24,752 nucleotides of DNA. Source: Gemmatimonadota bacterium (GTDB lineage: Bacteria; Gemmatimonadota; Gemmatimonadetes; Gemmatimonadales; Gemmatimonadaceae). The notes below the pieces were generated by a model. That model was not told the DNA's origin. It did no database searches and worked only from the letters and a program-made list of their open reading frames with translations. The translations under genes were made by a program, and so were the position numbers. The DNA lies in NCBI GenBank assembly GCA_031372565.1, contig JANMLN010000146.1, positions 1-24,752 on the forward strand, given 5' to 3'. Shown here in pieces: positions 697 to 24,752 of the stretch; the stretch's first letter is position 1, and each line of letters opens with the position of its first letter.

Positions 697-736
697 GCCG
701 CTTCCGTTAGACGCGGCAGGCCAACAACTTAGGTCG

Positions 737-8622: not shown

Positions 8623-8624
8623 AC

Positions 8625-9630: not shown

Positions 9631-9637
9631 GTCCGCC

Positions 9638-10162
9638 ATGCACCCGTTACGGACCCAACTCCTGATCATCGCTGCCGTGGTGGTCGCCGCAGACGTGCTC
9701 ACCAAGCAACTCGCCCTCGCCTTCCTGCCACCCACCGGCATGCCGATGGAGGTGGTGGGCGACTGGCTGCGCTTCACGCTGGCCTTCAATCGCGGCGCCG
9801 CGTTCGGCATGCACGTCGGGCCGTGGTCGCGGCTCGTGTTTTCGGCGTTCGCGATCGGGATGGTCGCCGTGCTGCTGGTCTCGGCGGGGCGCATGCACGG
9901 TCCCGCGCTCCGCATGGTGTCGGCCATGGGCCTGGTGGCGGGCGGTGCCGTGGGCAACCTGATCGACCGGATCCGGTGGGAACGCGGCGTGGTGGACTTC
10001 ATCGACGTCGGCGTCGGGATGACGCGGTTCTGGACATTCAACGTGGCCGATTCAGCCATCACGATCGGGGCCGTGCTGCTGCTCTGGCCGATGCCCGAGC
10101 CGGCGTCGACGGCGATGCCCGCCGACGCGCCGTCGGGTTCGGTCGGCCCGGGGACCTCGTGA
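9638..10162 (+). CDS. lspA: Lipoprotein signal peptidase II, copy 2
   Basis: Motifs ADVLTK, FNRGAAFG, GGAVGNLIDR, VVDFID, FNVAD. ATG lies 7 nt after the copy 1 stop. Confidence 0.92.
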   Translation: MHPLRTQLLIIAAVVVAADVLTKQLALAFLPPTGMPMEVVGDWLRFTLAFNRGAAFGMHVGPWSRLVFSAFAIGMVAVLLVSAGRMHGPALRMVSAMGLVAGGAVGNLIDRIRWERGVVDFIDVGVGMTRFWTFNVADSAITIGAVLLLWPMPEPASTAMPADAPSGSVGPGTS

Positions 10163-11169
10163 GCCAGGCCCCGGCGGCGGGCGGGCCCGCGCCGGGGCGC
10201 CACGAGCGGCTGGCGGACGAGTTGGCGGGCCAGCGCCTCGACCTCGCCATCGCCAGTTGGCTGGATGTCTCCCGGACGCGCGCCGCCACCCTCGTGGCCA
10301 CGGACCGGGTGCGCGTGAACGGTGCGCGTGAGCGCGCGAGCTACCAGGTCAACGCCGGCGACCGTCTGAGCGCCGATGTGCCGGCGCCAGAGGGACGCGA
10401 AGTCGTGGCGGAGGACATTCCGCTGACGGTCGTCTGGGAGGATGACGAGGTCCTCGTCGTCGACAAGCCTGCGGGCATGGTGGTGCACCCAGCCCCCGGC
10501 CATTGGACGGGGACGCTGGTCAACGCGCTCAAGGGGCGAGGCGGCGCGCTCAGCCCGACCGGCGATCCCGAGCGGGCGGGGCTCGTGCATCGGCTGGACA
10601 AGGATACGTCGGGCCTGTTGTTGGTCGCGCGTACCGAGCGCGCACACCGGGTGCTGTCGGCCGCGCTCGCGTCGCGTCGGATCGAACGGCGGTACGCGGC
10701 GGCCTGCTGGGGGCACCTGGAGGGGGACCGGCTGACCGTCGACAAGCCGGTGGGGCGGGACCCTCGCGATCGGCAGAAGATGGCGATCGTGGCGAACGGC
10801 CGGACCGCCAAGACCGACTTCCGGCGGCTCGCCCGGTTTCCGTCGGCCGACCTGTTGCAGGCGAAGCTGCATACGGGGCGCACCCACCAGATCCGGGTAC
10901 ATCTGGCCAGTGTGGGGCATCCCGTGCTCGGGGACGATACCTACGGCGGGGGGGGCGGACGGCGGTTGGCGGCGCTTCCGGCTCGACGGCACTGGCTGCA
11001 CGCCGCCTGGCTCCGGTTTCCGCATCCGGTCACCGGGGCGGTCGTCGACGTGCGGTCGCCCTTGCCGAGCGACCTCACGGCGTCGCTCATGGCGCTGGCC
11101 GAATCGTCGGATTCGTTTGCCGCACCCCTGACGCTGGAGTATTTTCACTTCTATCACGACGCCGACTGA
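10159..11169 (+). CDS. rluD: RluA-family 23S rRNA pseudouridine synthase with N-terminal S4 domain (RluD-like)
   Basis: S4-like RLDLAIA...SRTRAATLVATDRVRVNG, then VDKPAGMVVHP, catalytic HRLDKDTSG and TGRTHQIRVH. GTGA overlap with lspA copy 2. Confidence 0.92.
   Translation: MSQAPAAGGPAPGRHERLADELAGQRLDLAIASWLDVSRTRAATLVATDRVRVNGARERASYQVNAGDRLSADVPAPEGREVVAEDIPLTVVWEDDEVLVVDKPAGMVVHPAPGHWTGTLVNALKGRGGALSPTGDPERAGLVHRLDKDTSGLLLVARTERAHRVLSAALASRRIERRYAAACWGHLEGDRLTVDKPVGRDPRDRQKMAIVANGRTAKTDFRRLARFPSADLLQAKLHTGRTHQIRVHLASVGHPVLGDDTYGGGGGRRLAALPARRHWLHAAWLRFPHPVTGAVVDVRSPLPSDLTASLMALAESSDSFAAPLTLEYFHFYHDAD
11117..11145 (+). promoter_or_regulatory. Candidate sigma70-type promoter inside the rluD 3' end, driving the che/mgl operon
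   Basis: TTGCCG (11117-11122), 17-nt spacer, TATTTT (11140-11145), in a locally AT-rich patch. Confidence 0.5.
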
Positions 11170-11632
11170 GCTGGAGACCCCGGCAACCGCCGCGATCCGC
11201 TGCCTGTTGTTCTCGGCAGGGGGCCGTTTGTTTGGTTGCGACATCAGTGTGGTTCGGGAGATCATCCCGATCCGTCAGGCGACCCGGTTGCCGGGAGCGC
11301 CTGAGTACGTGCTGGGGCTCATCAACTTGCGCGGGATGGTGGTGACGGTGGTGGATCTGGTCCGTCGGTTCGGTGGTGACCGCGCCGATGCGGCCGAGGG
11401 GTCAATCATCGTGGTGGATTTCGGGACGCGTGCCGTCGGGCTTGCGGTGGATGCCATGCGCGACGTGCAGGGGGTCAGGCCGCGGTCTGTGAGCATTGGC
11501 ACACCGGCGATTGCCGGGTTGCCGGCGTCGGTGGTGGGCGGCATGGCGGACACGACGGAGGGGCTCGCCATCCTCCTTGATGTGGGAGCAGTTCTGCGGC
11601 AGGTCATGTCTTCGGGAGAGGGGGAGTCTTGA
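11153..11632 (+). CDS. cheW: CheW adaptor protein (start uncertain: ATC 11153, CTG 11171 or TTG 11207)
   Basis: IRCLLFSAGGRLFGCDISVVREII...TRLPGAPEYVLGLINLRGMVVTVVDL...VGLAVD...ILLDV. The frame is open from 11132 but has no ATG or GTG before the domain. Confidence 0.88.
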   Translation: MTTPTELETPATAAIRCLLFSAGGRLFGCDISVVREIIPIRQATRLPGAPEYVLGLINLRGMVVTVVDLVRRFGGDRADAAEGSIIVVDFGTRAVGLAVDAMRDVQGVRPRSVSIGTPAIAGLPASVVGGMADTTEGLAILLDVGAVLRQVMSSGEGES

Positions 11633-11991
11633 GCCATACGGTGCTGGTCTGCGACGATGCGATCTTCATGCGCACCATGGTCGGCGACATCCTGCAGCAG
11701 GCAGGATTCGAGATCGTGGGTGAGGCAGAGACGGGGATCCAGGCAGTCGAGAAGTACAAGCAATTGCGGCCGGACCTGGTCACGATGGACATCGTGATGC
11801 CGGACATGGGCGGGATCGACGCCGTTCGTGAGATCACCAAGTTCGATCCGAACGCGAAGGTGCTGATGTGCAGCGCGATGGGACAGCAGGCGCTCGTCGT
11901 CGAGGCCATTCAAGCCGGCGCCAAGGATTTCGTGGTCAAGCCGTTCCAGCCCAGCCGCGTGCTCGAGGCGGTGCAGCGGGTCCTCGGCTAG
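11629..11991 (+). CDS. cheY: CheY single-domain response regulator (Bacillus/Thermotoga/DifD-like)
   Basis: VLVCDDAIFMR, PDLVTMDIVMP (phospho-Asp), MCSAMGQ, AGAKDFVVKPF. TTG start overlaps the cheW stop (TTGA) after a strong GGAG-rich SD. Confidence 0.95.
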   Translation: MSHTVLVCDDAIFMRTMVGDILQQAGFEIVGEAETGIQAVEKYKQLRPDLVTMDIVMPDMGGIDAVREITKFDPNAKVLMCSAMGQQALVVEAIQAGAKDFVVKPFQPSRVLEAVQRVLG

Positions 11992-12095
11992 CGACACGGG
12001 CGCGCTGGGTGTCCCGCGACGGGGCGCTCGGCCTGTCCGTCAGCGTGACGTGCGTCGGCTGCGGCCGGCGCTCCCCTTTCCGCGACCGAGCTCTG

Positions 12096-14027
12096 GTGGA
12101 TCCCTCCCGCTACGCCGCCCTGTTCCTGACGGAGAGCCAGGAACATCTCTCGGCGATCAACACGTCGCTGCTTGAGCTCGAACGCAGCCCCGGTGCCGAG
12201 GCCCCGGTGGCCGAGCTGTTCCGCGCGATGCACACGATCAAGGGGATGGCGGCGACGATGGGGTATCAGGCGGTCACCGAGATCGCGCATGAGGCGGAGT
12301 CGATGCTGGAGGGCGTCCGACGTGGCGCCATCCGCACCGACGCAACGGTGGCGGACCTGCTGTTCGCATCGGCCGACCTGCTCGAGCGGACGATCGAGGC
12401 CACGACCGGGGGACTGGTGCTGCCGGATTCGCGCGAGGTCCTCGAGCGCATGCGCACGATGACCCGTGCGGCGCGGGCCACACCGCCTCGTGCGATGGCC
12501 AGTGTGCGTGGGGCGCCGGTCGGCACGCGCGTGCAGGTGACGCTGGAGCCGGAGACACCGCTCAAGGGCGTGCGGGCCTGGATGGTCGCGCAGAAGCTGG
12601 CCGCGCTCGGCCGGTTGATCGCCACGGAGCCGCCCGAAGGCGCCCTGCAGAGCGAGCAGTTCGAGCGCGTGTTCACGGTCGTGCTCGACACCGGTGCGGC
12701 GCCCGAAGTGCTGATCGCGGCGGCGCGATCGGGCGGTCACGTGGAGGACGTGGACGTGACCCCGCCCGCTCGGCCAGCAGGCAGCGACGACGCGGCGGTC
12801 CCGCGCGGGTCACAGCCGGTCCACCGCGTGAGCGGCGCGGTCACGGCGGAGTTCGCGGTCGCCGACGCGACGGCGGGGAGCGCGCCGCGCGCGCAGCGCC
12901 ACATCCGCATCGACCTGCGTCGGCTGGATGCGCTGACCAACCTGATCGGCGAACTGGTGATCGCACGCGGCCGACTGCAGGCCATCGCCGCCGAGCGTCG
13001 GGACGCGGTGCTCGACGATGCCTTGTCGCACGCGTCCCGGCTGGTGAGCGACCTGCAGGACGAGATCATGACGAGCCGACTCGTTCCGGTCTGGCAGGTC
13101 TTCGACCGCTTCCCGCGGCTGGTACGCGACGCGGCGCGTTCACTGGGCAAGGATGTGGAGTTCGTGATCGAGGGCAAGGACATCGAGCTTGACCGCTCGA
13201 TGCTCGACGAGATCGGCGAGCCGATGGTGCACCTGCTGCGCAATGCCGTCGACCACGGTCTGGAGACGCCGGCCGAGCGTCGCTCGGCGGGCAAACCGCC
13301 GGCGGGACGACTGCGCCTCGCGGCGCTGCGCGATCGATCGAGCGTGCTCATCCGGGTGAGCGATGACGGGCGCGGGATCGATCGCGCCCGCGTGCTCGCC
13401 AAGGCGCAGCGGCTCGGGTTCGTGGACGCCGCGGTGGAAGAGTTGAGCGACGAGGAGCTCTTCCGCATGATCGCGAGGCCCGGATTCTCGACCAACGACG
13501 CGGTCACCGACCTGTCCGGCCGCGGGGTCGGTATCGACGCGGTGGCGACGCGGGTGCGACAGCTCGGTGGCACGTTGGAACTGCGCTCGGAGGAGGGGCG
13601 TGGCACGACGGTCACGGCGCGGCTGCCGGCCACGCTGGCGATCATTCGCGCGGTGCTCGCGCGCGTGGGCACCGAGACCTACGCCGTCCCCATGACGCAC
13701 GTCAGCGAGACGCTCGAACTCTCGGGCGAGGTGCGCGAGACGGTGAAGGGGCGGGAAGTGCTGTCGCTCCGCGACGACGTGCTCCCGCTCGTGCACCTGC
13801 GCGAACTGGTGCGCCTGCCGTGCCTGCGCGAACGCGTTGCCCACGTGATCGTGCTCGAAATGGCGGACCGGCGGACCGGCGTCCTCGTGGACCGGCTGCT
13901 CGGACAGCAGGATATCGTGGTCAAGCCCTTTGATGCCGTCACGGACGGCCTCGCGCTGTTCAGCGGGGCCACGATTCTCGGCGATGGTGCGCCTGCGCTG
14001 ATCCTTGACGTGAACTCCCTTCTCTGA
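12096..14027 (+). CDS. cheA: CheA histidine kinase (P1-P2-P3-P4-P5)
   Basis: HPt ELFRAMHTIKGMAATMG, P2-like segment, dimerisation IRIDLRRLDALTNLIGELVI, HLLRNAVDHG, DDGRGID, PGFST, SGRGVGID, CheW-like end GATILGDG. GTG 12096 chosen because the ORF-track start overlaps cheY. Confidence 0.95.
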   Translation: MDPSRYAALFLTESQEHLSAINTSLLELERSPGAEAPVAELFRAMHTIKGMAATMGYQAVTEIAHEAESMLEGVRRGAIRTDATVADLLFASADLLERTIEATTGGLVLPDSREVLERMRTMTRAARATPPRAMASVRGAPVGTRVQVTLEPETPLKGVRAWMVAQKLAALGRLIATEPPEGALQSEQFERVFTVVLDTGAAPEVLIAAARSGGHVEDVDVTPPARPAGSDDAAVPRGSQPVHRVSGAVTAEFAVADATAGSAPRAQRHIRIDLRRLDALTNLIGELVIARGRLQAIAAERRDAVLDDALSHASRLVSDLQDEIMTSRLVPVWQVFDRFPRLVRDAARSLGKDVEFVIEGKDIELDRSMLDEIGEPMVHLLRNAVDHGLETPAERRSAGKPPAGRLRLAALRDRSSVLIRVSDDGRGIDRARVLAKAQRLGFVDAAVEELSDEELFRMIARPGFSTNDAVTDLSGRGVGIDAVATRVRQLGGTLELRSEEGRGTTVTARLPATLAIIRAVLARVGTETYAVPMTHVSETLELSGEVRETVKGREVLSLRDDVLPLVHLRELVRLPCLRERVAHVIVLEMADRRTGVLVDRLLGQQDIVVKPFDAVTDGLALFSGATILGDGAPALILDVNSLL

Positions 14028-14037
14028 CGGTGGCAGC

Positions 14038-14658
14038 ATGGACGACCTCCGGACCCTGAATCCGCAGCAGATCGATGCGCTGCGCGAAGTCGCGAATATC
14101 GGCGCCGGTCATGCGGCGACGGCGCTCTCGCAGATGACCAACGCGACGATCATGATCAGCGTCCCGCGGATCAACATCGCGCCGCTCGAAGAGCTCCCGC
14201 CACAGCTGGCAGCGCCCGAGGAACCGGTGGCCGCCGTGCTCATGCAGATGCTTGGCGATCTGACCGGTCGCACGCTCCTGGTCTTTCCGAAGCCCACGGC
14301 GCTCCGGTTGTCCGAGCTGATGCTGCGGCGGCCGAAGGGATCCTCGACCGAGCTCGGCGAGTTGGAGCAGTCGGTGATCAAGGAGGCGTCGAACATCCTC
14401 AGCGGCGCCTACATGAACGCACTTTCCGATTTCATGGGGATGATGCTGCTGCCGTCGCCGCCGTCCCTCGCCATCGATTTCTCGGCGGCCGTCCTCACGA
14501 GCACCTACCTGCAGTTCGGCAACGACTACGACCTCGTGTTCTGCGTGGAGAGTTCGTTCTACATGAAGGACTACGACGAGCACCTGCGCGGCTTCTTCCT
14601 GCTGCTCCCCGACTCGGCGTCGCTGCAGGCGATCCTGCGCGCCGTGCGCGTGGCCTGA
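14038..14658 (+). CDS. cheC: CheC-family CheY-P phosphatase
   Basis: Two D/S-x3-E-x2-N motifs, DALREVANI and SVIKEASNI, followed by ISVP and LPSPP; C-terminal GFFLLLPD. Confidence 0.92.
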   Translation: MDDLRTLNPQQIDALREVANIGAGHAATALSQMTNATIMISVPRINIAPLEELPPQLAAPEEPVAAVLMQMLGDLTGRTLLVFPKPTALRLSELMLRRPKGSSTELGELEQSVIKEASNILSGAYMNALSDFMGMMLLPSPPSLAIDFSAAVLTSTYLQFGNDYDLVFCVESSFYMKDYDEHLRGFFLLLPDSASLQAILRAVRVA

Positions 14659-14673
14659 GGCGTACCGCCCACC

Positions 14674-17418
14674 GTGACCACCGGCACCCTCACTTCGGAG
14701 CGCGACCGCGATGTCCTGCGGTCGTTCGCCCGGCGGATCGATCCGTCGGATGCGGGGGCGCACAACAACCTCGGCGTGCTGTACTACAACAAGGGGCTGC
14801 ACGAGGAGGCGGTGCAGGCCTTCATGAGCGCGCTCGAGCTCGACTCGAAGATGCAGGTCGCGCAGCGCAATCTCGAGATCGCGTACTTCCAGACCGGGTA
14901 CTACGATCGGCGGGTCGGCGAGTTGCGGGAGACGCTGCGCGACCGGCCCGCGGACCGCGCCGCACGCTGGGAACTGGGGCGGACCTATGCGCTCCTCAAC
15001 GAGCACGCCGCCGCGCTCGCCGAGTTCACGGAGCTGCTCCGCCATCATCCGGCGGATCTCGGGGCGCTCGTGCAGACGGGACTCGCCGAGAAGGCCATCG
15101 GTGACCTCGATGACGCGTTGCGCTGGTTCGATCGCGCGGTCGTCCTCGACCCGGCGTCGTCACTGGTGCACTTTTACCGTGGCGAGGTGCTCTACAACAA
15201 GGGCCTCAATGACGATGCGCTCAAGGCGCTCGAGACGGCGGTCGATCTCAACCCCGAGAATGCCGACGCCCACTACCTGACCGCCTTCGTGCTCGGCGAC
15301 ATGGGTCGGCACGAGGACGCGCGCGCCGCGACCAAGCGCGCCATGCAGATCAACCCGTCGCTCGGGCGGGCGCACGCCAACCTCTCGATCGACCGCAACA
15401 ACGCGCAGACGTACGAGCAGCTCGTGCCCGGGGGCACGGAGCGCCGCTCACAGCAGATGATGGCCGTGTCCGAGGAGGGGCAGCTCGCGCACTACAACCT
15501 GGGTGTCGCCTTCCGCCAGAAGGGCTACTACCAGGACGCGCTGCGCGAGTACCGCATCGCGCTCGAGCGGGCCGAGGACCGCGACCTCGTGCGGCAGGCG
15601 ATGGCGGAGGTCTATCTGCTCACGCGCGACGTGCAGCAGGCCGTGGCCATGTACGACGAGGCGCTGCGCTACCAGCCCGGATCGCCCAAGCTGTGGAATG
15701 AGCGCGGCGTGGCGTTGCACCAGGATGGCCGCTTCGATGACGCGGCCACGAGCTATCGCAAGGCCATCGAGGCCGACGCCCGCTACCCGCTCGCGTGGAA
15801 CAACCTCGGCGTGGCGCTCTATCACGGCGGTCAGAGCGAAGACTCGATCGACGCGTTCCGGCGCGCCCTCGATATCGAGGCCACGTTCGTCAAGGCGCGG
15901 CTCAACCTCGCGTTGCTCCTCTACAAGAACAAGCGGCTGCAGCTCGCGCTGGAGGCGTACCGGCATGTGCTGGGCAGCGAGCCCGAGCATCCGGTGGCAT
16001 GGAACGGCATCGGCCTTGTCCTCGCCGAACTCAAGCGGTTCGAGGAGGCGCGCGCATCGTTCGCACGCGCGATCCAGGCGCGTCCCGACTACGCGGAAGC
16101 GCACTACAACGTGAGCTTCACGCTCTCGAACCTCGGCGACTTCGAGGGGGCGCTCCGCGAAACCAAGCGGGCCCTCGAACTCGACCCGTACTACGTCGCG
16201 CAGAAGTTCGAGCTCGCCATCGACCTGATGCACGAGGATCCGGACTTCTCCGTGGTGCCGGACCTGGGCGGTGAGCGGCGTTCGTCCGCCCCCGTGCAGG
16301 AATTCTCGTTCGATCCCGGGCTGCTCGACTCCGTGTTCACCACGCTCGCCGCCCCCGCCGCCGTGCCCGTGGCACCGGTCGCATCGGCGGCGCGGCCGTA
16401 CGCATCGGCCGAGGAGTTTCTCGCCATGCGACAGTACGAACGGGCGAGCGCCGAGGCGACGGCCGCCATGGCACGCGGCGCCGACAAGGTGGAGGGCCTC
16501 GCCGTGGTCGGCGACGTCTACGCCGCGCGTGGCCTGCACGGCGAGGCGCTCGAGCGCTTCACCGAGGCGCTCGCGCTCGCGCCCGACGCGTGGCGCGCGC
16601 AGGTGGGGCGGGTACGGGCGCTGCTGCAGCTCGGACGCGGTGGGCTCGCGCGCGCCGCCGCCGATGCGCTGCTCGACCAGGGCGGGCACGATCTCGACAC
16701 GCTCGTGCTCGTGGCCGATGCGCGCATGGCGGACGGCGACGGCGCGGCGGCCCTCGAGGCGCTCGCCAGTGCCGGCGCGCTCGCCCCGCAGCGCGCCGAC
16801 CTGCACAAGCGCACGGGTGATGCCTTGCGGTCGCTCGGCGATGCGCCTGCGGCGATGGCGGCGTACCGTCGCGCGCTGGACATCGACCCGGCCTTCGGCG
16901 TCGTGCGGCTCGAGTTGGCCCGCATGCTCGTGGCGCAGGGGGACGCGGCCGGCGCGGAGACGGAGTTGCACGCCGCCATCGATGCCGTGCCGACGTGGGC
17001 GGAGCCCAAGCTCGAGTTGGCCCGCGTGCTGCGCGCCACCGCGCGCCCGGACGAGGCGCTCTCGCTGCTCATTCCGCTGTTGAGCGCCAACCCGTACCAG
17101 TTCGAGGCGCTGCTCGTGCTCGGCGAGTCGCTGCTCGATGCGGCGCGCGTGCGCGACGCCGCCACGGCGTTCGCGCGGATCCTGCGCTTCGATCCCGCGC
17201 ATGTCGGGGCGCTCTACTACACGGGGTTGCTCCTCGCGCGACAGAGTCGTTGGCGCGACGCGATCATGGCTTGGCACCGGGTCGACGAGCTGGAACCCGC
17301 GAGCCTCTGGGCGCGCAAGGCGCGACACGAGGCCCGAACGGCCGCCGAGCTGTCGCACATCCTGCACGTCACGCCCGCCGCGTCCGCTGCCCTGCCCGAG
17401 CCGATGGAGGCCCGCTAG
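14674..17418 (+). CDS. Large cytoplasmic TPR-repeat protein (914 aa)
   Basis: Many TPR units (AHNNLGVLYYNKG, AHYNLGVAFRQKG, AWNNLGVALYHGG, AWNGIGLVLAELK) in three blocks. No signal peptide or catalytic domain recognised. Confidence 0.88.
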   Translation: MTTGTLTSERDRDVLRSFARRIDPSDAGAHNNLGVLYYNKGLHEEAVQAFMSALELDSKMQVAQRNLEIAYFQTGYYDRRVGELRETLRDRPADRAARWELGRTYALLNEHAAALAEFTELLRHHPADLGALVQTGLAEKAIGDLDDALRWFDRAVVLDPASSLVHFYRGEVLYNKGLNDDALKALETAVDLNPENADAHYLTAFVLGDMGRHEDARAATKRAMQINPSLGRAHANLSIDRNNAQTYEQLVPGGTERRSQQMMAVSEEGQLAHYNLGVAFRQKGYYQDALREYRIALERAEDRDLVRQAMAEVYLLTRDVQQAVAMYDEALRYQPGSPKLWNERGVALHQDGRFDDAATSYRKAIEADARYPLAWNNLGVALYHGGQSEDSIDAFRRALDIEATFVKARLNLALLLYKNKRLQLALEAYRHVLGSEPEHPVAWNGIGLVLAELKRFEEARASFARAIQARPDYAEAHYNVSFTLSNLGDFEGALRETKRALELDPYYVAQKFELAIDLMHEDPDFSVVPDLGGERRSSAPVQEFSFDPGLLDSVFTTLAAPAAVPVAPVASAARPYASAEEFLAMRQYERASAEATAAMARGADKVEGLAVVGDVYAARGLHGEALERFTEALALAPDAWRAQVGRVRALLQLGRGGLARAAADALLDQGGHDLDTLVLVADARMADGDGAAALEALASAGALAPQRADLHKRTGDALRSLGDAPAAMAAYRRALDIDPAFGVVRLELARMLVAQGDAAGAETELHAAIDAVPTWAEPKLELARVLRATARPDEALSLLIPLLSANPYQFEALLVLGESLLDAARVRDAATAFARILRFDPAHVGALYYTGLLLARQSRWRDAIMAWHRVDELEPASLWARKARHEARTAAELSHILHVTPAASAALPEPMEAR

Positions 17419-18570
17419 ATGGCGATCGAGGGCCCGCTCCGCGAACTCGGCATCCATGATGTCTTCCAGCTGCTCGACCTGAGCCGCAAGACCGGCACGC
17501 TCACGGTGACGTCGGAACTGCGCGACAACGAAGGCACGGTCTGGTTCGACGGCGGCAAGGTCATCTATGCCACGATCAAGTCCAACCCGCATCCGCTTGG
17601 CCTCATGCTCGTCAAGTCGGGCAAGGTCACGGAAGCCGATCTTGATCGGGCCTTGCTCATCCAGAAGACGCGCTCCGATGGCCGGCGCTTCGGCGAGATT
17701 CTCGTCGAACTCGGCGTCATCTCGCCGCGCGAGCTGGAGCGGCAGGTCAAGTTGCAGGTCGAGGAAGTCGTCTTCGAGCTGATGTCCTGGCGCGAGGGGT
17801 TCTTCTCGTTCATCGAGCGCGACGTCAGCGAGATTCCAGCCGCGGCCACGGTGCGCGTCGGGACCGAATCGCTGCTCATGGAGGGCGCGCGTCGCATCGA
17901 CGAGTGGTCACGCATTGCCGACAAGGTGCCGCATCTGGCCGTCATTCCCGTACTGGAGGAGGTCAGTGACGCGCACGCGGCGCATCTCGACCTGCTGCCC
18001 ACGGAGTGGGAGATGCTGACGATGATCGACGGGACCGCCGACCTCAAGGCCATCGCGAGCAACCTCGTGCGCAGCGAGTTCGACGTGGCGCGCATCGCCT
18101 ATGGCCTCGTGACCACGGGGGTCATCTCGTTGCGCATGCCGACGCGCGTGAGCGTGCGCGCGATGCTCCCCGTCGACGACGTCGCCCCGCACGTGGCGGC
18201 GGCGCAGGCCGCGCTCGACGCGGGCCAGCCCGAGGTCGCGCTCGTGTCCGCCCGGCACGCCGTGAACGCCGATCCCTCGAGCACCGAGGGGCGCATCGCC
18301 GTGGCGCGTGCCCTCGCGCGGCTTGGTCGCGCCGCCGAGGCCGTGGACGAGCTGCGCCGCGCTGCCCAGTCTGATCCGTCCAATCCCGACGTGTCGGTCC
18401 ATCTGGCCTTCGCGGCCGCGCGAAACGGCCAGATCTACGAGGCGATGGATCGGTGGTCTCGCTACCTGAGCGAGTCGCCAACGTCGCCGCACGCGGCTCG
18501 CGTACGCGCCGCGCTTGACGCGGCCCGCCAGCTCAACGTCCTGATCGAGGAGTTCGCGCATGTCGGATGA
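17419..18570 (+). CDS. DUF4388/PATAN-domain protein with degenerate MshEN-like insert and C-terminal TPRs
   Basis: MAIEGPLRELGIHDVFQLLDLSRKTGTLTV...GTVWFDGGKVIYA...WREGFFSF...ESLLMEGARRIDEW; TPR-like C-terminus. Paralogous to 22740-24362. Confidence 0.85.
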   Translation: MAIEGPLRELGIHDVFQLLDLSRKTGTLTVTSELRDNEGTVWFDGGKVIYATIKSNPHPLGLMLVKSGKVTEADLDRALLIQKTRSDGRRFGEILVELGVISPRELERQVKLQVEEVVFELMSWREGFFSFIERDVSEIPAAATVRVGTESLLMEGARRIDEWSRIADKVPHLAVIPVLEEVSDAHAAHLDLLPTEWEMLTMIDGTADLKAIASNLVRSEFDVARIAYGLVTTGVISLRMPTRVSVRAMLPVDDVAPHVAAAQAALDAGQPEVALVSARHAVNADPSSTEGRIAVARALARLGRAAEAVDELRRAAQSDPSNPDVSVHLAFAAARNGQIYEAMDRWSRYLSESPTSPHAARVRAALDAARQLNVLIEEFAHVG

Positions 18571-19393
18571 CATCGCTCGTCTGAGCGAAGAGTTGGCGCG
18601 CGACCCGGCCAGTCTTGCCTTCCTGGAGCTCGCCGAAACGTTGCGCAAGCGTGGTGATCTCGAGGTCGCCGAGAAGGTGGCCGTTCGGGGGCTCGAGCGT
18701 CATCCGCATCTCGGCACCGGACACGACGTCCTCGCGCGCATCTACGCCGACACGGGGGTCTTCGAGAAGGCCTTCGACGAGTGGGGCATGGTGCTTCGGC
18801 TGAGTCCCGGCCATCCGGGTGCCCTCAAGGGGCTCGGCTTCGTCTGCTTTCATCAGGGACGCATGGCCGAAGCCGAGACGTGGCTGTCGCAGGCGGCGGA
18901 GGTCGATCCCGCCGACCAGCGGAACCTCGGCGCGCTGGCCTACGTCCGCCAGCAGCTCGCCGACTCGGAGCCAGCCGCGTCGACCGTTGCCGCTGCCGCG
19001 TCGCCATCGGGGCCGCCCGCGGCAGCGCACGATGCGCGGTCGCTCTTCCACGACATCCTGGGTGCGGAGCAGGGGATGGCGCTGCTGCTTGACGAACATG
19101 GACTCGTGCTCGCCGGGGGGCACGAGGTGGACGGGCGCGATGTGGGGCAAGAGGTCGGCGCCCAACTGGGCGGCGTCAGCGACGAGGCCGAGCGGGCCAT
19201 GCGCCACCTCGGCCTGGGTGGATGGACCTCGATCGTGTTCGAGACCTCGCAGGCGACGGTGGCGATGTCGCCCGGCCCCGAACGCTCGCTCATGCTCGTG
19301 AGCGCGGGAAAGGCGACGCCGGTCGGGTTCGTGCGCCGCATGCTCGAGCGTTCCCTGCAGCGCGCCACCACCTTCCTGGCGGGGAGCGCATGA
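18560..19393 (+). CDS. TPR plus roadblock/LC7 fusion protein
   Basis: N-terminal TPRs (HDVLARIYADTG, ALKGLGFVCFHQG), Ala/Pro linker, roadblock-like C-terminus (ALLLDEHGLVLAG...LGLGGWTSIVFET...PVGFVRRML). Confidence 0.75.
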   Translation: MSDDIARLSEELARDPASLAFLELAETLRKRGDLEVAEKVAVRGLERHPHLGTGHDVLARIYADTGVFEKAFDEWGMVLRLSPGHPGALKGLGFVCFHQGRMAEAETWLSQAAEVDPADQRNLGALAYVRQQLADSEPAASTVAAAASPSGPPAAAHDARSLFHDILGAEQGMALLLDEHGLVLAGGHEVDGRDVGQEVGAQLGGVSDEAERAMRHLGLGGWTSIVFETSQATVAMSPGPERSLMLVSAGKATPVGFVRRMLERSLQRATTFLAGSA

Positions 19394-19746
19394 AGAACTC
19401 GCCCTTCGCCGATCTGCTGGGCGCGCTCGTGCGACAGCGCGGTGTGACCGCGGCCATGGTCGTCTCGGAGGCGGACGGTCTCATCGTCGACGCCCAAGTC
19501 TCCATCGGCATGCGTGGGGAGGTCGTCGCGGCACTCTCGGCGTCGCTGTATCGGCGGGCGCGCCTCGCCGCGCAGGCCGCGGGCTATGGCGAGACGACCG
19601 TGCTCCAGCTGGAGGCGGAGCAGGGGCGCATCTGCGCGGTCGGCAAGAACGACCTGGTCCTGGTGGCCGTGACCGAACTGGGCTCGAACATCGGCCTCGT
19701 GCGCATGGAGATGCTCAAGGGACTCCAGGGTGGGGCATTGGGATGA
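19390..19746 (+). CDS. Roadblock/LC7-domain protein, MglC-like (118 aa)
   Basis: GVTAAMVVSEADGLIVD...VAALSASLY...LVLVAVTELGSNIGLVRMEM. ATGA overlaps at both ends support the ATG 19390 start. Confidence 0.85.
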   Translation: MKNSPFADLLGALVRQRGVTAAMVVSEADGLIVDAQVSIGMRGEVVAALSASLYRRARLAAQAAGYGETTVLQLEAEQGRICAVGKNDLVLVAVTELGSNIGLVRMEMLKGLQGGALG

Positions 19747-20216
19747 CCACTGTTGCCGTCACCGAAGCATGGGCCGAAGCGCCCCTCCGTCAGTTCGTGG
19801 AGGACGCACGGGTCGATCTGGCCCTGCTGCTGCATGCCAGCGGACAGGTGCTCGGGCAGGCGGGCTTCGAACGGCGCATGGACGTGATGACGGCGTGCGC
19901 CCTCGCCGCGGGCATCAACGCGACGGCAGCGGAACTCGGGCGCATGCTCGACGGGAAGCCGTTCGGCGCGCTGCACTATGCCGGGAAGTCCAAGCAGACC
20001 TTTCTCGCACTGGTCGACACCCGGCGCGGCGCATTCCTGCTGTTCTGCGTGTTCGACGAGCGCGCCTCGCTCGGGATCGTGCAGTTGTACTTCGGCGAGT
20101 TCCGCCATCGGCTCTCGGCGGCGGCGCCGGACGCAGAGGGACCCTCGACCCCGCTCAACGAGCACTTCGAGGGGGAACTCAACCGCAACCTTGCGGCCCT
20201 CTTCGGCCGAACCTGA
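19743..20216 (+). CDS. mglB: MglB-like roadblock protein (putative GAP for MglA)
   Basis: LLHASGQVLGQAG...ALAAG...LGRMLDGKPF...VFDERASLGIV resembles myxobacterial MglB (VIFDNRTSLGLV). Has a C-terminal helix ending LAALFG and lies directly upstream of mglA. Confidence 0.75.
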   Translation: MTTVAVTEAWAEAPLRQFVEDARVDLALLLHASGQVLGQAGFERRMDVMTACALAAGINATAAELGRMLDGKPFGALHYAGKSKQTFLALVDTRRGAFLLFCVFDERASLGIVQLYFGEFRHRLSAAAPDAEGPSTPLNEHFEGELNRNLAALFGRT

Positions 20217-20228
20217 CGGAGCCCCAGC

Positions 20229-20831
20229 GTGTCCATCGTCAACTATGCTACGCGCGAGATCACGTGCAAGATCGTCTACTACGGGGCTGGTCGCTCCGGA
20301 AAGACGACCAACTTGCAGTACATCTATGCGCAGGTGCCGCCCGAGCGCAAAGGCAACATGGTCTCGTTGGCCACGCAAACCGATCGGACCCTCTTCTTCG
20401 ACTTCCTCCCGCTGGATCTCGGCAACATCTCGGGCTTCACCACGCGGTTCCAGCTGTACACGGTGCCGGGGCAGGTCTACTACCAGACGACGCGCAAGCT
20501 GGTGCTGCAGGGGGCCGACGGCGTGGTCTTCGTGGCCGACAGCCAGGCGCGCCAGTTGGCCGAGAATGTCGAGAGCCTGCAGGACTTGCACCTGAATCTG
20601 GCGGAGCACGGCATGGATGCCCGGCATGTGCCGCTCGTGATCCAGTACAACAAGCGCGACCTGCCGCCCGAGATGCTCACCGGGGTCGATGAGCTGCAGG
20701 AGGCCCTCAACTTCCGCGGCGTGCCAGATTTCCAGGCCGACGCATTGCATGGTCCCGGTGTCTTCGAGACCTTGCGGGGAATCTCCGAGCTCGTGTTGAA
20801 GAAGCTCTCTGCCCATCAGGCCGCGAAGTGA
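20229..20831 (+). CDS. mglA: MglA small Ras-like GTPase
   Basis: [37 protein letters not shown] (R53, T54), YTVPGQV (Q82), [17 protein letters not shown], colinear with M. xanthus MglA numbering. GTG start with GGAG SD at 20218-20221. Confidence 0.95.
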
Positions 20832-22738
20832 CCACGGGTTCGCGCTACCGGTTCGACACGTACATCGTCGGCGCGGCCAATCGGCTCGCCATGGCCGCCG
20901 CGCGCGCGGTGGCGGAGGGGCCGGGCACGGTGTACAACCCGCTCTTCATCTACGGGCCGAGCGGGCTCGGGAAGACGCACCTGCTGGCCGCCGTCGGCAC
21001 GCACGCGCGACAGCTCGCGCCGGATCTGGACGTCGAGTACGTGTCCTTCGACGACTTCGTCGAACAGTTCCACGCGGCCGTCTCCGGCGGCGAGATGGAG
21101 GCCTTCCGCCGCCGTTGGGTTGCGGTCGACGTGTTGCTCGTCGATGACGTGCAGTTCCTGACCGGTCGCCGCGAGTTGCAGAGCGAGCTGTTGCGATTGT
21201 TCAACACGCTGCAGGGGACCGGCAAGCAGATCGTGCTCACGAGCGACCGCCCGCCGCAGGAGATCGCCGACGTCGACGAGCGCCTCCTCTCGCGACTGGC
21301 GGGGGGCCTGATCGTGGATATCGGCGCGCCGGATTACGAAACGCGTCTCGCGATTCTGCGCTCGGCGTGCACCGAGCGCAGCGTGCAGCTGCCGGGTGAT
21401 GTGCTCGAAACGCTCGCACGGCTCGAGTTGCCCAACGTGCGCGAGCTGCATGGCGCCCTCAATCGGGTGATGGCCGAGCAGCAATTGGAGGGGCGCGCGG
21501 TCGCGTCGCGCGAGGTGTGGGGACTCGTCGGTGGCCGTGGCGCGCCGCCGGCGCCCGCCGAGTCCGCCGAGGCCAGCGAGTACGCATCGTTCCTGTCGGA
21601 CATCGCCAGCGCGGTCGCGGCGAGCGTTGATCCGTGGAAGACGCGCCTCGCGGAGGCGATCGCCTACTGGCGGGGTGAGGGCTTTCGCACCGGTGTGCTG
21701 GAACGCGCCATGCAGTTGAGCGCCTCGCCCGATGTTCAGGGGCTGCTCGATACGTTCGCCGCGGCGGTCGACCACTTGCGGCTGCTCGAGCGGCAGGCCG
21801 GGTCCGCCGACCCGCTGCTGGCCGGGCACGAGGTCTTCCGCGATCCCGAGCGCGTGGCCGATGCCGAAGCGCTGCTCGATCGTGCGCTCGCGGGTGACAC
21901 GCCACCACCAGCGCCCGATCCGGCGATGGTGCGCGCGAGCTTCGAGGTGGCCGGCTCGAACCAGCTGGCGGTGCGTGCCGCCGATGCCGTGGTGGCCGAG
22001 CCCGGTGCACGCTACAGTCCGCTCGTGATTCACGGACCGACCGGTACCGGCAAGACGCACCTGCTGCACGCGATCGGCAATGCGCTGCTCGCGAGCGGCG
22101 CGCGTCGCGTGGCCTGCGTCAACGCGGCCACGTTCGGCGAGGAACTCATCAGTGCGCTGCAGGAAGGCACGGTGCACCGGTGGCGCGCGCGCTACCGCGC
22201 GGTGGACGCGCTCCTGCTCGATGACATCCACGCCCTCGGCGGCAAGGAACGCACGCAGGAGGAGTTCTTCCACTTGTTCAACGAGTTGCACGGGCTGGGA
22301 CGGCAGATCGTGCTCACGAGCGGCGTCGCGCCGCGCGAGCTTGGCGGACTCGAGGAGCGCCTGCGGTCGCGCTTCGAGGGCGGGCTCGTGGTCAGCATTC
22401 AGCCCCCGGAGCGCGCGCTGCGCGAGGCGTTGTTCGCGCGGTGGTTCCGGGCGCAGGAGGTCCCGGCCGACGCCGAACTGCTGCGGTATCTCGGTGAGCG
22501 GCCGGCGGCCTCGTCGCGCGAAGTGCTCGGGACCGCGCGCCGGTTGCGCGATGCGGCGGGGCACGTCGGCCTGGCGCTGACGGTGGGCTTCGCGATGGAA
22601 ACGCTCGAGCCGCCCCGTCGTACCTCGATCGCCGTGCCGCGCCCGTCGGGCGGCATCGATGCCTTCCTGCTCAACGAGGAGAAGGTCGTCTGGGATTGGC
22701 CGGACCTGACCGGACGGCTGATCGAGGAGCTGCGCTGA
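20828..22738 (+). CDS. Tandem DnaA/Hda-type AAA+ ATPase (two DnaA domain-III modules, no domain I or IV)
   Basis: Walker A GPSGLGKT (20954-20977) and GPTGTGKT (22034-22057); Walker B LLVDD and LLLDD; Arg-finger boxes RLLSR and RLRSRF; sensor II NVREL and SSREV. GTGA overlap with mglA. Confidence 0.92.
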
Positions 22739-22739
22739 G

Positions 22740-24362
22740 ATGGCCATCAAGGGCTCCCTCCGCGAAGCGTCGCTGCCGGACGTGCTCCAGCTGCTCACGC
22801 TGGGGAAGAAGACCGGTTGCCTGTCGGTCACGCATCGCTCGAACTTCGGCTACATCTACTTCGACAAGGGGCGCATCTCGTACGCGTCCATCGTGAACCG
22901 CCGCGACCGGCTGGGCGACCTGCTGGTGAAGGGGGGCGCGATCCAGCAGGCGCAGCTCGACCAGGCGGTGGCGCAGCAGGCGCGCGAGCGCGACAAGCGC
23001 CTCGGCGAGATTCTCGTCGACATGGGGCTGCTCTCGCGGGACCAGCTGCACGCGCACATCCGCACGCAGATCGAGGAGGCGGTCTACTTCCTCTTCACGT
23101 GGACGCAGGGGACCTTCTCGTTCGAGCCCGACGTCCTGCCCGAGCAGCAGGACTTCACGGTGCTGATCAACCCGGAGTCGCTGCTGCTCGAAGGGGCGCG
23201 GCGCGTCGACGAGTGGTCGCTCATCGAGAAGAAGCTGCCGAGTTTCGATCTGGTCTTCGACGTGGACCGCCAGAAGCTGCGCGAGAGCGCCGTGCGCCTC
23301 ACCGACGAGCAGACGAAGCTCCTCGAGCTGATCGACGGCCGCCGCGACGTGACGATGCTCATCGAGGATTCCGGCCTGATCGAGTTCGATGTCGGCAAGG
23401 CCGTGTACGGCCTCATCACCGCCGGCTTCCTGCATCGCGTCGGCAAGAGCCGCACGACGACCGATGCGGTCTCCGAGGCGCGCGTCGAGGAGCATCGCAA
23501 CCTGGGTGTCGCGTTCTACAAGACGGGCATGCTCGACGAGGCGCTGCGCGAGTTCCGTCGGGTGCTCGACCTGCGCGAGGGCGACGTCGGTGCGCGCTTC
23601 TTCGTCGCGCTCGCGCACGCGCGACGCGGCGAGTGGGAACACGTCGTCTCGATCCTGCAGGAGATTGCCGCGGTTCCGGGCGGCAACAAGGTGGCGGTCT
23701 TCCACAACCTCGCCTCGGCGCTCGAACGACTGGGACGCTCGATGGAGGCGCGGGTTGCCCTCGATGAGGCGATCCGTCGCGGCGGCGCGCAGGATCCGGT
23801 CGTCCAGACCACGGCCGGCGTGATCGCGCTGCGCGAAGGTGACGCCAGCAGTGCCGATGCGACGCTGTCGGCGGCCCGATCGCTCTGGGGGCGGAAGCCG
23901 CCGCCACCGGCCTGGTTCCACTACGCGGCCCTCGCTGCCGCCCTCGCGGGCGACCTGCCGCGCGGCATCACGCTGCTCACCGAGGGCACGGGGATCCATC
24001 CGCATGCGGCCGCGCTGCACAACAACCTCGCGGCCATCCTCGAGCGCCGGGGACAGGTCGAGGACGCCATGAAGGCCGCGGAGCGCGGGGTGGTGGAGGA
24101 TGCGTCGCTCCCGCAGCTGCACAAGAACGTCGGGGACCTGCAGTATCGTGCGGCACATTACGACGAGGCGCTCGAGAGCTTCCAGCGCGCGGTGAAGCTC
24201 GCCCCCGAGCTCGGCGCCGACGTCCACATGAAGCTGGGCAACATCCGCTTTCGGCGTCAGGAGACGGCCGAGGCGGTGCGCCACTGGGAACGCGCCCTGG
24301 AACTCGATCCGGCGAACGCGATCGTGCGCGCCAACCTCGACGCCGTGCGCCGCGGCGGATGA
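22740..24362 (+). CDS. DUF4388/PATAN-domain protein with MshEN-type tandem motif and C-terminal TPR array
   Basis: MAIKGSLREASLPDVLQLLTLGKKTGCLSV...GYIYFDKGRISYA, two RLGxxLVxxG motifs, WTQGTFSF, ESLLLEGARRVDEW; TPRs such as HRNLGVAFYKTG, LHNNLAAIL, VHMKLGNIRF. Confidence 0.87.
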   Translation: MAIKGSLREASLPDVLQLLTLGKKTGCLSVTHRSNFGYIYFDKGRISYASIVNRRDRLGDLLVKGGAIQQAQLDQAVAQQARERDKRLGEILVDMGLLSRDQLHAHIRTQIEEAVYFLFTWTQGTFSFEPDVLPEQQDFTVLINPESLLLEGARRVDEWSLIEKKLPSFDLVFDVDRQKLRESAVRLTDEQTKLLELIDGRRDVTMLIEDSGLIEFDVGKAVYGLITAGFLHRVGKSRTTTDAVSEARVEEHRNLGVAFYKTGMLDEALREFRRVLDLREGDVGARFFVALAHARRGEWEHVVSILQEIAAVPGGNKVAVFHNLASALERLGRSMEARVALDEAIRRGGAQDPVVQTTAGVIALREGDASSADATLSAARSLWGRKPPPPAWFHYAALAAALAGDLPRGITLLTEGTGIHPHAAALHNNLAAILERRGQVEDAMKAAERGVVEDASLPQLHKNVGDLQYRAAHYDEALESFQRAVKLAPELGADVHMKLGNIRFRRQETAEAVRHWERALELDPANAIVRANLDAVRRGG

Positions 24363-24752
24363 CGATGAAGACCCCCGTGCGTCCGGATGCCGGCTTCGAG
24401 GCGCTCACGGGCAAGATCGCCCGCGAGAAGGGGTTTGCCTGCGCGTCGTACAAGCCGAGCTGCCTCATGCGCCGCGTGGCCGTGCGGATGCGCGCGCGCG
24501 CCGTGCACGACTACGCGGCGTATGCCCGGCTCCTCGACGCCGATCCGGTCGAGTACGAGCGACTGCTCGACGCGCTCACCATCAATGTCACGACGCTGCG
24601 GCGCAACGCGGACGCGTGGACGGCGCTCGAACGCGAGGCGCTGCCCCGGTTGCTCGATCACGTCCGCGGACCGGTGCGCGCGTGGAGCGCCGGCTGCTCG
24701 AGCGGCGAGGAGCCGTACACCGTGGCCATGGCGTTCGCGCGCGTGGCGGCCG
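24359..24752 (+). CDS. cheR: CheR protein-glutamate methyltransferase, 5' part (truncated by the window)
   Basis: Not in the ORF track; translated by hand from ATG 24359 (ATGA overlap): ...YKPSCLMRRVAVRMR...EYERLLDALTINVT...VRAWSAGCSSGEEPYTVAM. Confidence 0.92.
   Translation, partial: MTMKTPVRPDAGFEALTGKIAREKGFACASYKPSCLMRRVAVRMRARAVHDYAAYARLLDADPVEYERLLDALTINVTTLRRNADAWTALEREALPRLLDHVRGPVRAWSAGCSSGEEPYTVAMAFARVAA

Follow-up and report, generated by a model that had tools for sequence, protein, structure and literature searches.

The window analysed here is a complete contig of 24,752 bases (~69% G+C) from a Gemmatimonadota genome of 95.85% completeness. The contig is G000:C15, where G000 denotes the window's genome; elsewhere C stands for a contig, L for a fetched locus, f for a family and g for a genus. 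From position 11207 to the contig end, the open reading frame (ORF) listing and the Pfam matches agreed on 13 + strand genes, in the same order as in the original prediction. A chemosensory (Che) core is followed by an MglA/roadblock GTPase module, a protein made of two DnaA-domain-III ATPase modules (DnaA2x) and two PATAN-TPR proteins (PATAN383 and PATAN540), one on either side of the GTPase genes. This supercluster is real, conserved across the Gemmatimonadales and apparently uncharacterised. Its features are listed below, with the upstream boundary marker on the last line.

11207..11632, + strand: cheW (CheW, E 1.6e-29)
11629..11991, + strand: cheY, a single-domain receiver of 120 amino acids (aa) (Response_reg, E 1.8e-30)
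12096..14027, + strand: cheA (Hpt, P2, H-kinase_dim, HATPase_c and CheW domains)
14038..14658, + strand: predicted CheC/CheX-type phosphatase of phosphorylated CheY (CheY-P) (CheC, E 6.9e-20; CheX)
14674..17418, + strand: 914-aa TPR protein (many TPR families)
17419..18570, + strand: PATAN383, 383 aa, PATAN domain (DUF4388, E 2.4e-33) with a degenerate MshEN insertion and C-terminal TPR
18560..19393, + strand: TPR plus roadblock/LC7 protein (TPR families; Robl_LC7 at 21.1 bits, under the 23-bit cut-off)
19390..19746, + strand: roadblock/LC7 protein (Robl_LC7 at 25.8 bits, cut-off 23)
19743..20216, + strand: mglB, 157 aa (match to MglB 6h5b_B, E 3.1e-07)
20229..20831, + strand: mglA, Ras-like GTPase (match to MglA 6h17_A, E 7.4e-76)
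20828..22738, + strand: DnaA2x, 636-aa tandem DnaA-domain-III AAA+ protein (two Bac_DnaA stretches)
22740..24362, + strand: PATAN540, 540 aa, PATAN domain (DUF4388, E 1.1e-40) with an MshEN insertion, a winged-helix-like domain and C-terminal TPR
22908..23069, + strand: two 24-residue MshEN-type motifs within PATAN540 (residues 57-80 and 87-110; strict pattern match)
24359..24752, + strand: 5' part of cheR (CheR_N and CheR), interrupted by the contig end
9823..11169, + strand: rluD, pseudouridine synthase (PseudoU_synth_2 and S4), outside the system

From cheW to cheR, the intergenic spacing is -4, 104, 10, 15, 0, -11, -4, -4, 12, -4, 1 and -4 nt. In this count the cheA start was set at GTG 12096, as relatives align from residue 62-77 of the longer ORF, and that of the second roadblock gene at ATG 19390, which is preceded by GGGGAG. 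Once these two starts were trimmed, the joins came out with the figures originally described, namely overlaps or gaps of 15 nt or less except for 104 nt before cheA. The limits of the cluster had to be redrawn at both ends. The feature had been started at 11117, a position falling within the 3' end of rluD, and its extent of 13 genes was an underestimate. The cheR gene is incomplete in the window because the contig ends, not the gene; its C-terminal end (last 68 residues) opens contig C190 (C190:3-206). There it is followed by cheD, cheB, a 268-aa AAA_22 ATPase gene, a gene for a 274-aa protein with a C-terminal CheW domain, a second cheW, and the genes for a 287-aa TPR protein, a Peptidase_MA_2 protein and a 567-aa TPR protein, beyond which lie mraW, ftsI, murE, murF and mraY. 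The 13 window genes are the 5' two-thirds of a string of ~20 genes between rluD and mraW.

Conservation and modularity of the gene string

We have compared 20 loci, each spanning 20 kb around DnaA2x and taken from genomes with long contigs (seven from family f1, seven from f2, one from f3, two from f4 and three from f7), by mapping the window proteins onto them. The rluD gene flanked the locus upstream in 20/20. In 17 of the 20, belonging to families f1-f4, cheY-cheA-cheC and, further along, mglA-DnaA2x-PATAN540 occurred in the window's order and strand. The full set of 13 window genes was matched in 11 loci, and 16 retained the 914-aa TPR gene. With start codons picked by a simple rule, the mglA-DnaA2x gap was at most 30 nt in 21/22 loci and the DnaA2x-PATAN540 gap at most 10 nt in 23/25. 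A gene-neighbourhood survey of the kind proposed with the original prediction, here anchored on DnaA2x, found the order conserved in relatives within the phylum. Since this order is kept in 17 of 20 loci of four families, with start/stop overlaps, the string is supported as one conserved unit and not as a chance juxtaposition.

Several lineages carry reduced versions. The three f7 loci hold just rluD-DnaA2x-PATAN540, with no che or mgl genes nearby, and in one of them yggS-divIVA-ileS lies upstream and a Peptidase_MA_2 gene and an NtrC-type regulator gene downstream. Three loci of genus g9 gave no matches to the TPR-roadblock, roadblock, mglB and cheR genes, and in one of the three, L037, the PATAN protein has no insertion. 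Eleven extra loci were picked from genomes without a clear tandem match or without a cluster-type MglA. Among these, genus g5 has an intact che and mgl cluster without DnaA2x and without the block of AAA_22, CheW, TPR290 and peptidase genes. In genus g10, cheW-Y-A-C is followed directly by PATAN540-cheR-cheB-TPR290-TPR567-mraW. Genome G114 shows rluD-mglA-PATAN540-cheR-TPR290-TPR567-mraW, and G204 a DnaA-like remnant followed by PATAN540-TPR290-peptidase-TPR567-mraW. The ATPase itself was found as a single module (G084, G049), split (G127), N-terminally shortened (G016) or interrupted by a stop (G278), and G275 has a PATAN383-type gene with a degenerate mglA.

A PATAN-TPR gene was present between rluD and mraW in 31/31 loci, and rluD and PATAN540 had the same order and strand in the 23/23 loci listing both. 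The che, mgl/roadblock and DnaA-like modules come and go, and the PATAN-TPR gene stays. The original prediction of a single joined unit held as regards conserved order and coupling (17/20), but not as regards indivisibility, the modules being separable into che without mgl and DnaA2x, DnaA2x-PATAN without che and mgl, and che with mgl without DnaA2x. As lineages of the last kind exist, the DnaA-like gene is not obligatory for a Che-MglA link.

That each module occurs without the others in some lineage would also be expected if independent modules had been inserted repeatedly at a permissive locus between rluD and mraW, with no joint work. We consider this very unlikely, given the nested order conserved across four families, the close joins across module borders (mglA/DnaA2x -4, PATAN540/cheR -4 and cheC/TPR 15 nt) and the short mglA-DnaA2x gap (21/22 loci). 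Terminator-like sites in 10800-24752 also argue against it in that they number 4 vs 3.9 expected from shuffles, a count that is uninformative taken by itself, as are the sigma-70-like promoter sites of the same interval (0 vs 0.9 expected).

The distribution of DnaA2x was followed in several collections. A protein database held thousands of relatives, and all the named ones among the best 120 were from Gemmatimonadota. Full-length representatives were found down to ~31% identity, with the named ones belonging to the Gemmatimonadales. In the Atlas, Gemmatimonadota was the commonest phylum in all clusters of tandem length (593-663 aa). A profile scan of contigs with distant tandem members covered 2 of the 64 parts of the collection, with a pattern that also matches true DnaA. 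The 80 loci kept included ~11 of the tandem type (10 at E <=3e-85 and one at a contig edge), all from Gemmatimonadota. The remaining matches, of 650-810 bases with E ~1e-26 to 1e-31, came from other phyla and one archaeon and were consistent with ordinary DnaA. As far as sampled, the tandem DnaA-domain-III ATPase appears restricted to Gemmatimonadota.

Within the phylum, DnaA2x presence was scored in 301 genomes, four of them unpublished (G157, G182, G057 and G097), by a best E <=1e-66; this threshold was set post hoc, true DnaA alone giving 1e-51 to 1e-60. The gene was present in 53/70 genomes of f1, 119/125 of f2, 3/3 of f3, 5/6 of f4 and 1/1 of f5. The counts were 0/23 for f6, 10/47 for f7, 1/4 for f8 (with two more ambiguous) and 0/22 for f9-f12.

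Predicted properties of the encoded proteins

The cheA product carries Hpt, dimerisation, kinase and CheW-like domains and, together with CheW and CheY, makes up a Che-type pathway, with adaptation enzymes encoded by cheR in the window and cheD and cheB on C190. No gene for a receptor, or methyl-accepting chemotaxis protein (MCP), was found in the window or in C190:1-15205; the genome has five MCPsignal matches, all on contigs outside the cluster. Its one H-kinase_dim (CheA) match is located in the cluster. CheY is the most conserved protein of the string, with 78-96% identity in the 17 loci of four families, compared with 42-66% for CheA and 31-66% for CheW in the same loci. Such a constraint is unusually strong for a 120-aa receiver and suggests several binding partners.

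The cluster GTPase matched M. xanthus MglA over residues 1-194 (6h17_A, 194 residues, E 7.4e-76) and T. thermophilus MglA (3t12_A) with E 4.3e-66. The stretches LYTVPGQV and TDRTLFFDF are identical to those of M. xanthus MglA in the alignment, and the switch-1 Arg is a trait of the MglA family. In the G3 motif of MglA, TxxGQ, which the cluster protein keeps as TVPGQ, a Thr (Thr78) replaces the usual Asp, as stated in part of an earlier study (PMC3000849). The 157-aa protein matched three M. xanthus MglB chains (E 3e-07 to 5e-07, the best being 6h5b_B) and had no Pfam match at E 0.01, Robl_LC7 included. Its gene lies 12 nt upstream of mglA, in the position of an adjacent partner. Judged from these matches, the cluster MglA and MglB are genuine.

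The window's genome contains a second, stand-alone mglB-mglA pair, at C194 ~21604-22718 (L141 7601-8937, - strand), between dnaX and cinA and near grpE-dnaJ. Its MglA is 50% identical to the cluster MglA, and most f1-f4 genomes have two MglA matches each. As a separate observation, genus g39 (L044, G233, 9965-10528) has a cluster MglA just 37% identical to the window's, with DnaA2x and PATAN540 at 43-45%. While the rest of the g39 cluster is kept, its GTPase is either decayed or re-purposed.

Both PATAN proteins matched DUF4388 (PATAN, PF14332) above the cut-off of 25 bits (PATAN383 at 115.2 and PATAN540 at 138.9 bits), and the PATAN domains of the genome are confined to this cluster. The MshEN motif has been given as RLGxx(L/V/I)(L/V/I)xxG(L/V/I)(L/V/I)xxxxLxxxLxxQ, occurring twice with a short spacer that has 5 residues in MshE (PMC5013675, in the part describing the motif). 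With a pattern whose hydrophobic positions were slightly widened, PATAN540 shows two tandem strict 24-residue motifs, at residues 57-80 and 87-110, with a 6-residue spacer. PATAN383 gave no match to the MshEN patterns; its first motif has Pro for Arg. Both proteins exceeded the cut-off of 38 bits of NF053729 ("cyclic di-GMP-binding domain, MshE-related"), PATAN540 with 52.6 bits and PATAN383 with 48.1 (residues 59-109).

A model of PATAN540 residues 1-250, with a predicted local distance difference test score (pLDDT) of 88, placed a four-helix insertion (helices 58-64, 70-82, 88-94 and 100-119) within the PATAN beta-core, comparable to the four-helix fold of MshE residues 7-66. The top Foldseek row was MshE with cyclic di-GMP (c-di-GMP), 5htl, with a root-mean-square deviation (rmsd) of 1.6-2.1 over 56-61 columns, 41-45% identity and E 0.045-0.06. 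VIA gave Z 7.4 for 5htl (rmsd 2.5, 60 aligned) and Z 6.3 for the c-di-GMP-bound PilF GSPII-B domain (8pdk), and described residues 163-236 as winged-helix-like. The MshEN/PATAN label first given to these proteins is therefore upheld by motif, family model (NF053729 in both PATAN proteins) and predicted fold together, and both are probable c-di-GMP sensors as far as sequence and model go. The insertion resembles the MshEN (GSPII) unit of MshE and PilF in its two tandem RLGxx..Q motifs and its four helices. It differs in placement, being inserted in PATAN instead of lying N-terminally on a secretion or pilus ATPase, and in its spacer (6 residues vs 5 in MshE).

Two other readings of these proteins were discarded. 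A PATAN core acting as a roadblock/longin-like GTPase platform had been raised by Foldseek rows for GATOR1/SEA, and VIA put these rows on residues 161-238, that is, on the winged-helix-like unit and not on the core. PATAN540 is not a double PATAN protein either: the MshEN insertion splits a single domain, which Pfam lists as two stretches (profile positions 1-77 and 50-122). An anecdotal observation concerns G249:C1 (f7), where a second PATAN gene (808681-808980) and the gene of a PilT-family ATPase (810827-811846) are ~2 kb apart. G000 itself has eleven T2SSE-family ATPases.

In the DnaA2x model (pLDDT 89.2, predicted template modelling score 0.51), the linker between the two complete AAA+ modules is helical, and the remainder consists of a disordered stretch and a terminal helix. 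Module 1 spans ~residues 1-240, the linker ~250-355 and module 2 ~360-595, followed by the tail with the terminal helix. The best fold matches were domain III of B. subtilis DnaA (8bv3; template modelling score, TM, 0.94, rmsd 1.5, 43% identity) and of T. maritima DnaA. Identity to domain III of the DnaA that the same genome encodes on contig C156 is 47.5% for module 1 and 40% for module 2, and the two modules are 39% identical to each other. Neither the N-terminal domain I nor the C-terminal, DnaA-box-binding domain IV of DnaA was found among the best 25 of 28 Pfam rows or in the model. The cut-off of the DnaA family TIGR00362 was exceeded solely through summing of the two domain-III copies, and the Hda models were missed (TIGR03420 with 165.7 bits vs a cut-off of 194.8, NF051883 with 69.1 vs 300).

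In an alignment of 42 members, the Walker A Lys was conserved in 42/42 for module 1 and 37/42 for module 2, the Walker B Asp in 42/42 and 38/42, the box VII Arg in 41/42 and 35/42, and the sensor-2 Arg in 41/42 and 36/42. By these motifs, DnaA2x is predicted to be an intact ATPase. Each module is like DnaA and its domain-III-only relative Hda in being a domain III that keeps the Walker A/B residues and the Arg of box VII and of sensor 2. DnaA2x differs from both by its two modules, a linker of ~100 helical residues and a conserved C-terminal helix, and from DnaA also by the lack of domains I and IV and in that its gene lies in a signalling cluster and not at the origin, a separate DnaA being encoded on C156. 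Apart from this, a region 39-41% identical to DnaA2x starts at residue ~186-189 of two very long metagenomic proteins, P0175 (1876 aa) and P0186 (1990 aa), which look like fused giant forms of it.

The single-stranded DNA (ssDNA) and base-capture residues of B. subtilis DnaA include I190, I193, R202, E223 and E228 (PMC10721633, in the portion dealing with capture). We have mapped them by a gap-free alignment to this protein. Module 2 has hydrophobic residues at I190 and I193, Arg at R202 in 34/42, Glu at E223 in 24/42 and Glu at E228 in 36/42. In module 1, R202 and E228 are retained, whereas I190 is replaced by His and E223 by Arg. Because module 2, and partly module 1, keeps these capture residues, a residual surface for contacting nucleic acid or DnaA may be present.

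Such a surface would suit a cell-cycle hub made of DnaA2x and the PATAN-TPR, Peptidase_MA_2 and TPR proteins, in which DnaA2x would co-assemble with DnaA or bind ssDNA, tying replication initiation or division to polarity, c-di-GMP and, in lineages that have one, the chemosensory state. In addition to the module 2 equivalents of I190, I193, R202, E223 and E228, each module is closer to DnaA domain III (47.5% and 40%) than to the other module (39%), the fold is that of DnaA domain III (TM 0.94, rmsd 1.5), and the Arg-finger and sensor residues are kept. The locus, moreover, always lies between ileS-lspA-rluD and mraW-ftsI-murE-murF-mraY, and in f7 after yggS-divIVA-ileS-rluD. The orders ileS-dksA-type-lspA-rluD of the window and yggS-divIVA-ileS-rluD of f7 are the tail of the Bacillus division and cell-wall neighbourhood. 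Window positions 5326-11169 and L051 4842-10472 hold that tail, and the cluster is wedged between it and mraW-ftsI-mur. A division-gene neighbourhood is nevertheless weak evidence, DnaA2x has neither domain IV nor domain I, and TIGR03420 (Hda) stays under its cut-off (165.7 vs 194.8 bits). The gene is also absent from g5, g10 and most of f6 and f7 with no replacement seen, which argues against a general replication factor. Overall, we regard this hub as unlikely.

A more specific version casts DnaA2x as a DnaA decoy or partner, which the PATAN-TPR protein would hold at the pole and MglA and CheY-P would gate. By capping or seeding DnaA filaments, or by binding unwound DNA, it would let the circuit set when, or in which daughter, replication starts. 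The type species of the phylum is reported to bud. This scheme is rather improbable; if true, it would connect environmental sensing to the cell cycle in a new way.

Output of the pathway and proposed mechanism

Thirty genomes, nine of them known from their loci to carry the che and mgl cluster, were compared by profile. FlhA was found in 5/9 cluster-bearing genomes (G000, G284, G103, G067 and G165) and not found in the other four (G077, G142, G036 and G228), which are 93-98% complete and of which G142 is a single contig. FliG_C was likewise not found in these four and was found in G000 (1/5 tested). The cluster, then, does not consistently co-occur with flagellar genes (FlhA 5/9, FliG_C 1/5). 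The four genomes have a single H-kinase_dim match each, in the cluster, and 2-5 MCPs each. Since these genomes show neither FlhA nor FliG and the cluster CheA is their only CheA, the output is probably not flagellar. CheA was matched three times in each of the flagellated genomes G067, G103 and G165, with flhA 14-61 kb from one of the matches. In the g10 genomes G072 and G074, one CheA shares the flhA contig and the other lies beside a PATAN gene. Flagellated genomes other than those of the window's genus thus have another Che core in addition, which likewise argues for a non-flagellar output. CheA was not matched in four f7 genomes that have the DnaA2x-PATAN pair, and in the one of these checked for MCPs (G224) none was found. 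By analogy with systems discussed below, the best-fitting output is a machine at the cell pole, for instance type IV pili.

The mechanism we propose, with a rough probability of 0.45 and the doubt mostly on the target machine and the ATPase, is that the Che pathway drives an MglA pole module which acts through PATAN adaptors on a polar machine, with DnaA2x as a switch. The original prediction, in which phosphorelay, c-di-GMP input, GTPase switch and AAA+ ATPase form one dedicated pathway, is plausible and has partial support. Receptors encoded elsewhere would feed the CheW/CheA array, with CheR, CheD, CheB and CheC, whose genes are observed, serving in adaptation and signal removal as is usual for their families. 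CheA would phosphorylate the single-domain CheY. CheY-P would then act mainly not on a flagellar switch but on the pole module, consisting of MglA-GTP, MglB as the GTPase-activating protein (GAP) of MglA, the two roadblock proteins and the large TPR protein. This step is modelled on Myxococcus Frz and is supported by the cluster being kept in genomes without flagellar markers. The two PATAN-MshEN-TPR adaptors would add a c-di-GMP input and carry the output to the polar machine, most likely the type IV pilus motor, a target suggested by the cyanobacterial PATAN regulators, as these bind PilB1 and PilC. DnaA2x would be an ATP-dependent, self-assembling switch and a partner of the downstream PATAN-TPR protein; near-universal translational coupling and co-retention without che or mgl argue for this partnership. 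A complex prediction for full-length DnaA2x with PATAN540 residues 1-250, based on custom alignments, scored 0.00 in two runs, which speaks neither for nor against binding. In the window's genus, which is flagellated and has just this CheA, the cluster CheY may act on the flagellar motor as well.

A number of observations weigh against this mechanism. A PilT-family ATPase occurs in 29/30 genomes, with or without the cluster, so that pili are at hand everywhere, the profile has no discriminating power and co-occurrence gives no support to a pilus link. Pilus polarity could be switched by the C194 mglB-mglA pair, in which case the cluster copy would have another task. DnaA2x is missing in g5 clusters and the whole mgl/roadblock/DnaA2x block in g10, and because of these losses the parts can evidently work apart. 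Most ssDNA-capture equivalents are kept in module 2, which suits a scaffold no better than a role with nucleic acid. Furthermore, both genomes of the window's genus (G000 and G284) have FlhA, G000 also has FliG, and just one CheA was found in each. The cluster Che core is consequently the sole candidate for flagellar chemotaxis in this genus, where it may control flagella. The best NCBIfam rows of the Che proteins, CheY_Halo, CheA_Halo and CheC_Thtogales, are swimmers' models, all three matched under their cut-offs.

These last two points also fit a flagellar chemotaxis operon with acquired polarity genes. CheY-P would there act on the flagellar switch, and MglA/MglB, the TPR and PATAN proteins and the ATPases would place the flagellum or the receptor array at the pole. 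CheC, CheD and a P2-containing CheA are typical of swimming systems, and the downstream AAA_22 ATPase beside the CheW-ended 274-aa protein recalls the ATPase and CheW-like pairs that position receptor arrays. We nevertheless find this explanation doubtful, as the four genomes without FlhA and FliG keep the cluster, its CheA and 2-5 MCPs, and as in G067, G103, G165, G072 and G074 another CheA is encoded 14-61 kb from flhA, on one contig with it.

Relation to known systems and significance

The cluster is a variant of the design in which a chemosensory pathway drives small-GTPase polarity. By logic, the closest system is Myxococcus polarity, with the same expected scheme of receptor input resetting the active pole. 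Frz-MglA/MglB/MglC/RomR with SgmX likewise has a Che phosphorelay, MglA, the roadblock GAP MglB and extra roadblock proteins, and SgmX and the 914-aa protein are both large TPR proteins, likened here by type. Frz is defined by the CheA-receiver fusion FrzE and the double-receiver protein FrzZ. The CheA described here has one Hpt and no receiver, so that there is no FrzE, and the only receivers of the string are the 120-aa CheY and CheB, neither of them FrzZ-like. With CheA lacking a receiver domain and no FrzZ-like protein, the cluster is not a Frz orthologue. In the window and C190, we saw no FrzZ-like double receiver, receptor gene or RomR-like protein. We know of no Frz/Mgl counterpart for the PATAN-MshEN adaptors or the DnaA-like ATPase. 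The two systems also differ in layout, since in Myxococcus the MglA partners are at separate loci, according to passages of PMC4316618, and in Gemmatimonadota they form one string.

A second likeness is to the cyanobacterial Tax/Pix systems, which also have PATAN beside a Che-type pathway and set type IV pilus polarity. The PATAN domains of Synechocystis regulators are the output part and bind PilB1 and PilC in two-hybrid assays, and the same preprint, in the portions concerned, describes PATAN proteins with a GspE_N annotation and MglA/MglB genes near PATAN genes (bioRxiv 10.1101/2021.06.11.447907). PatA-type proteins are PATAN-REC, unlike the PATAN-TPR proteins described here, which have CheY separate and MshEN inside PATAN.

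Parts of the survey by Wuichet and Sogaard-Andersen (PMC4316618) assign the Gemmatimonadetes MglA to Group 1. Its Table S2 of 2014 lists, for Gemmatimonas aurantiaca, GAU_1409 as "PATAN>MglA>-PATAN>" with a 229-aa MglA and GAU_1115 as "MglB>MglA>". The GAU_1409 layout is that of the trimmed g9 variant, whose mglA ORF likewise encodes 229 aa. Where the DnaA-like gene would be expected, between MglA and the second PATAN, the table has a gene without a name. Passages of PMC4316618 contain no mention of a DnaA-like gene or a che context. In the literature searched, with coverage thin for subscription papers, no description of the cluster was found, nor of any characterised polarity system with a DnaA-like component, in line with the original prediction. 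As far as found, two parts have no characterised counterpart: the PATAN adaptors with inserted MshEN and the tandem DnaA-domain-III ATPase.

In Myxococcus, the chemosensory-MglA link was pieced together from scattered genes, and here a candidate parts list stands in one operon-like string. The route from CheY-P to a small-GTPase switch could thus be studied in a compact setting, in an abundant and little-studied soil phylum. As a scaffold switch, DnaA2x would put the initiator fold to a new use; should it retain contact with DnaA or DNA, sensing would be linked to replication. Genetics may be feasible, because a cultured Gemmatimonas species is listed with the trimmed "PATAN>MglA>-PATAN>" layout.

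Some minor observations concern the genes around the string. At G000:C190 1727-3833 (L132), the AAA_22 ATPase gene is followed by that of the 274-aa CheW-ended protein, whose N-terminal half has no family, and by the further cheW. The best NCBIfam row of the 268-aa ATPase was an XrtA/PEP-CTERM-associated ATPase, under its cut-off. At the 5' end of the window, positions 1-834 (- strand) encode a response regulator with a LuxR/GerE output that runs off the contig and has no visible link to the cluster. Upstream of the cluster, and on its strand, lie ileS, a dksA-type zinc-finger gene, two Peptidase_A8 (lspA) ORFs and rluD. The two lspA ORFs (9004-9630 and 9515-10162, +) are apparently a tandem duplication of the signal peptidase II gene between the dksA-type gene and rluD, as both are nearly full-length in that domain and match Peptidase_A8 profile positions 3-140 and 1-138 of 142, respectively.

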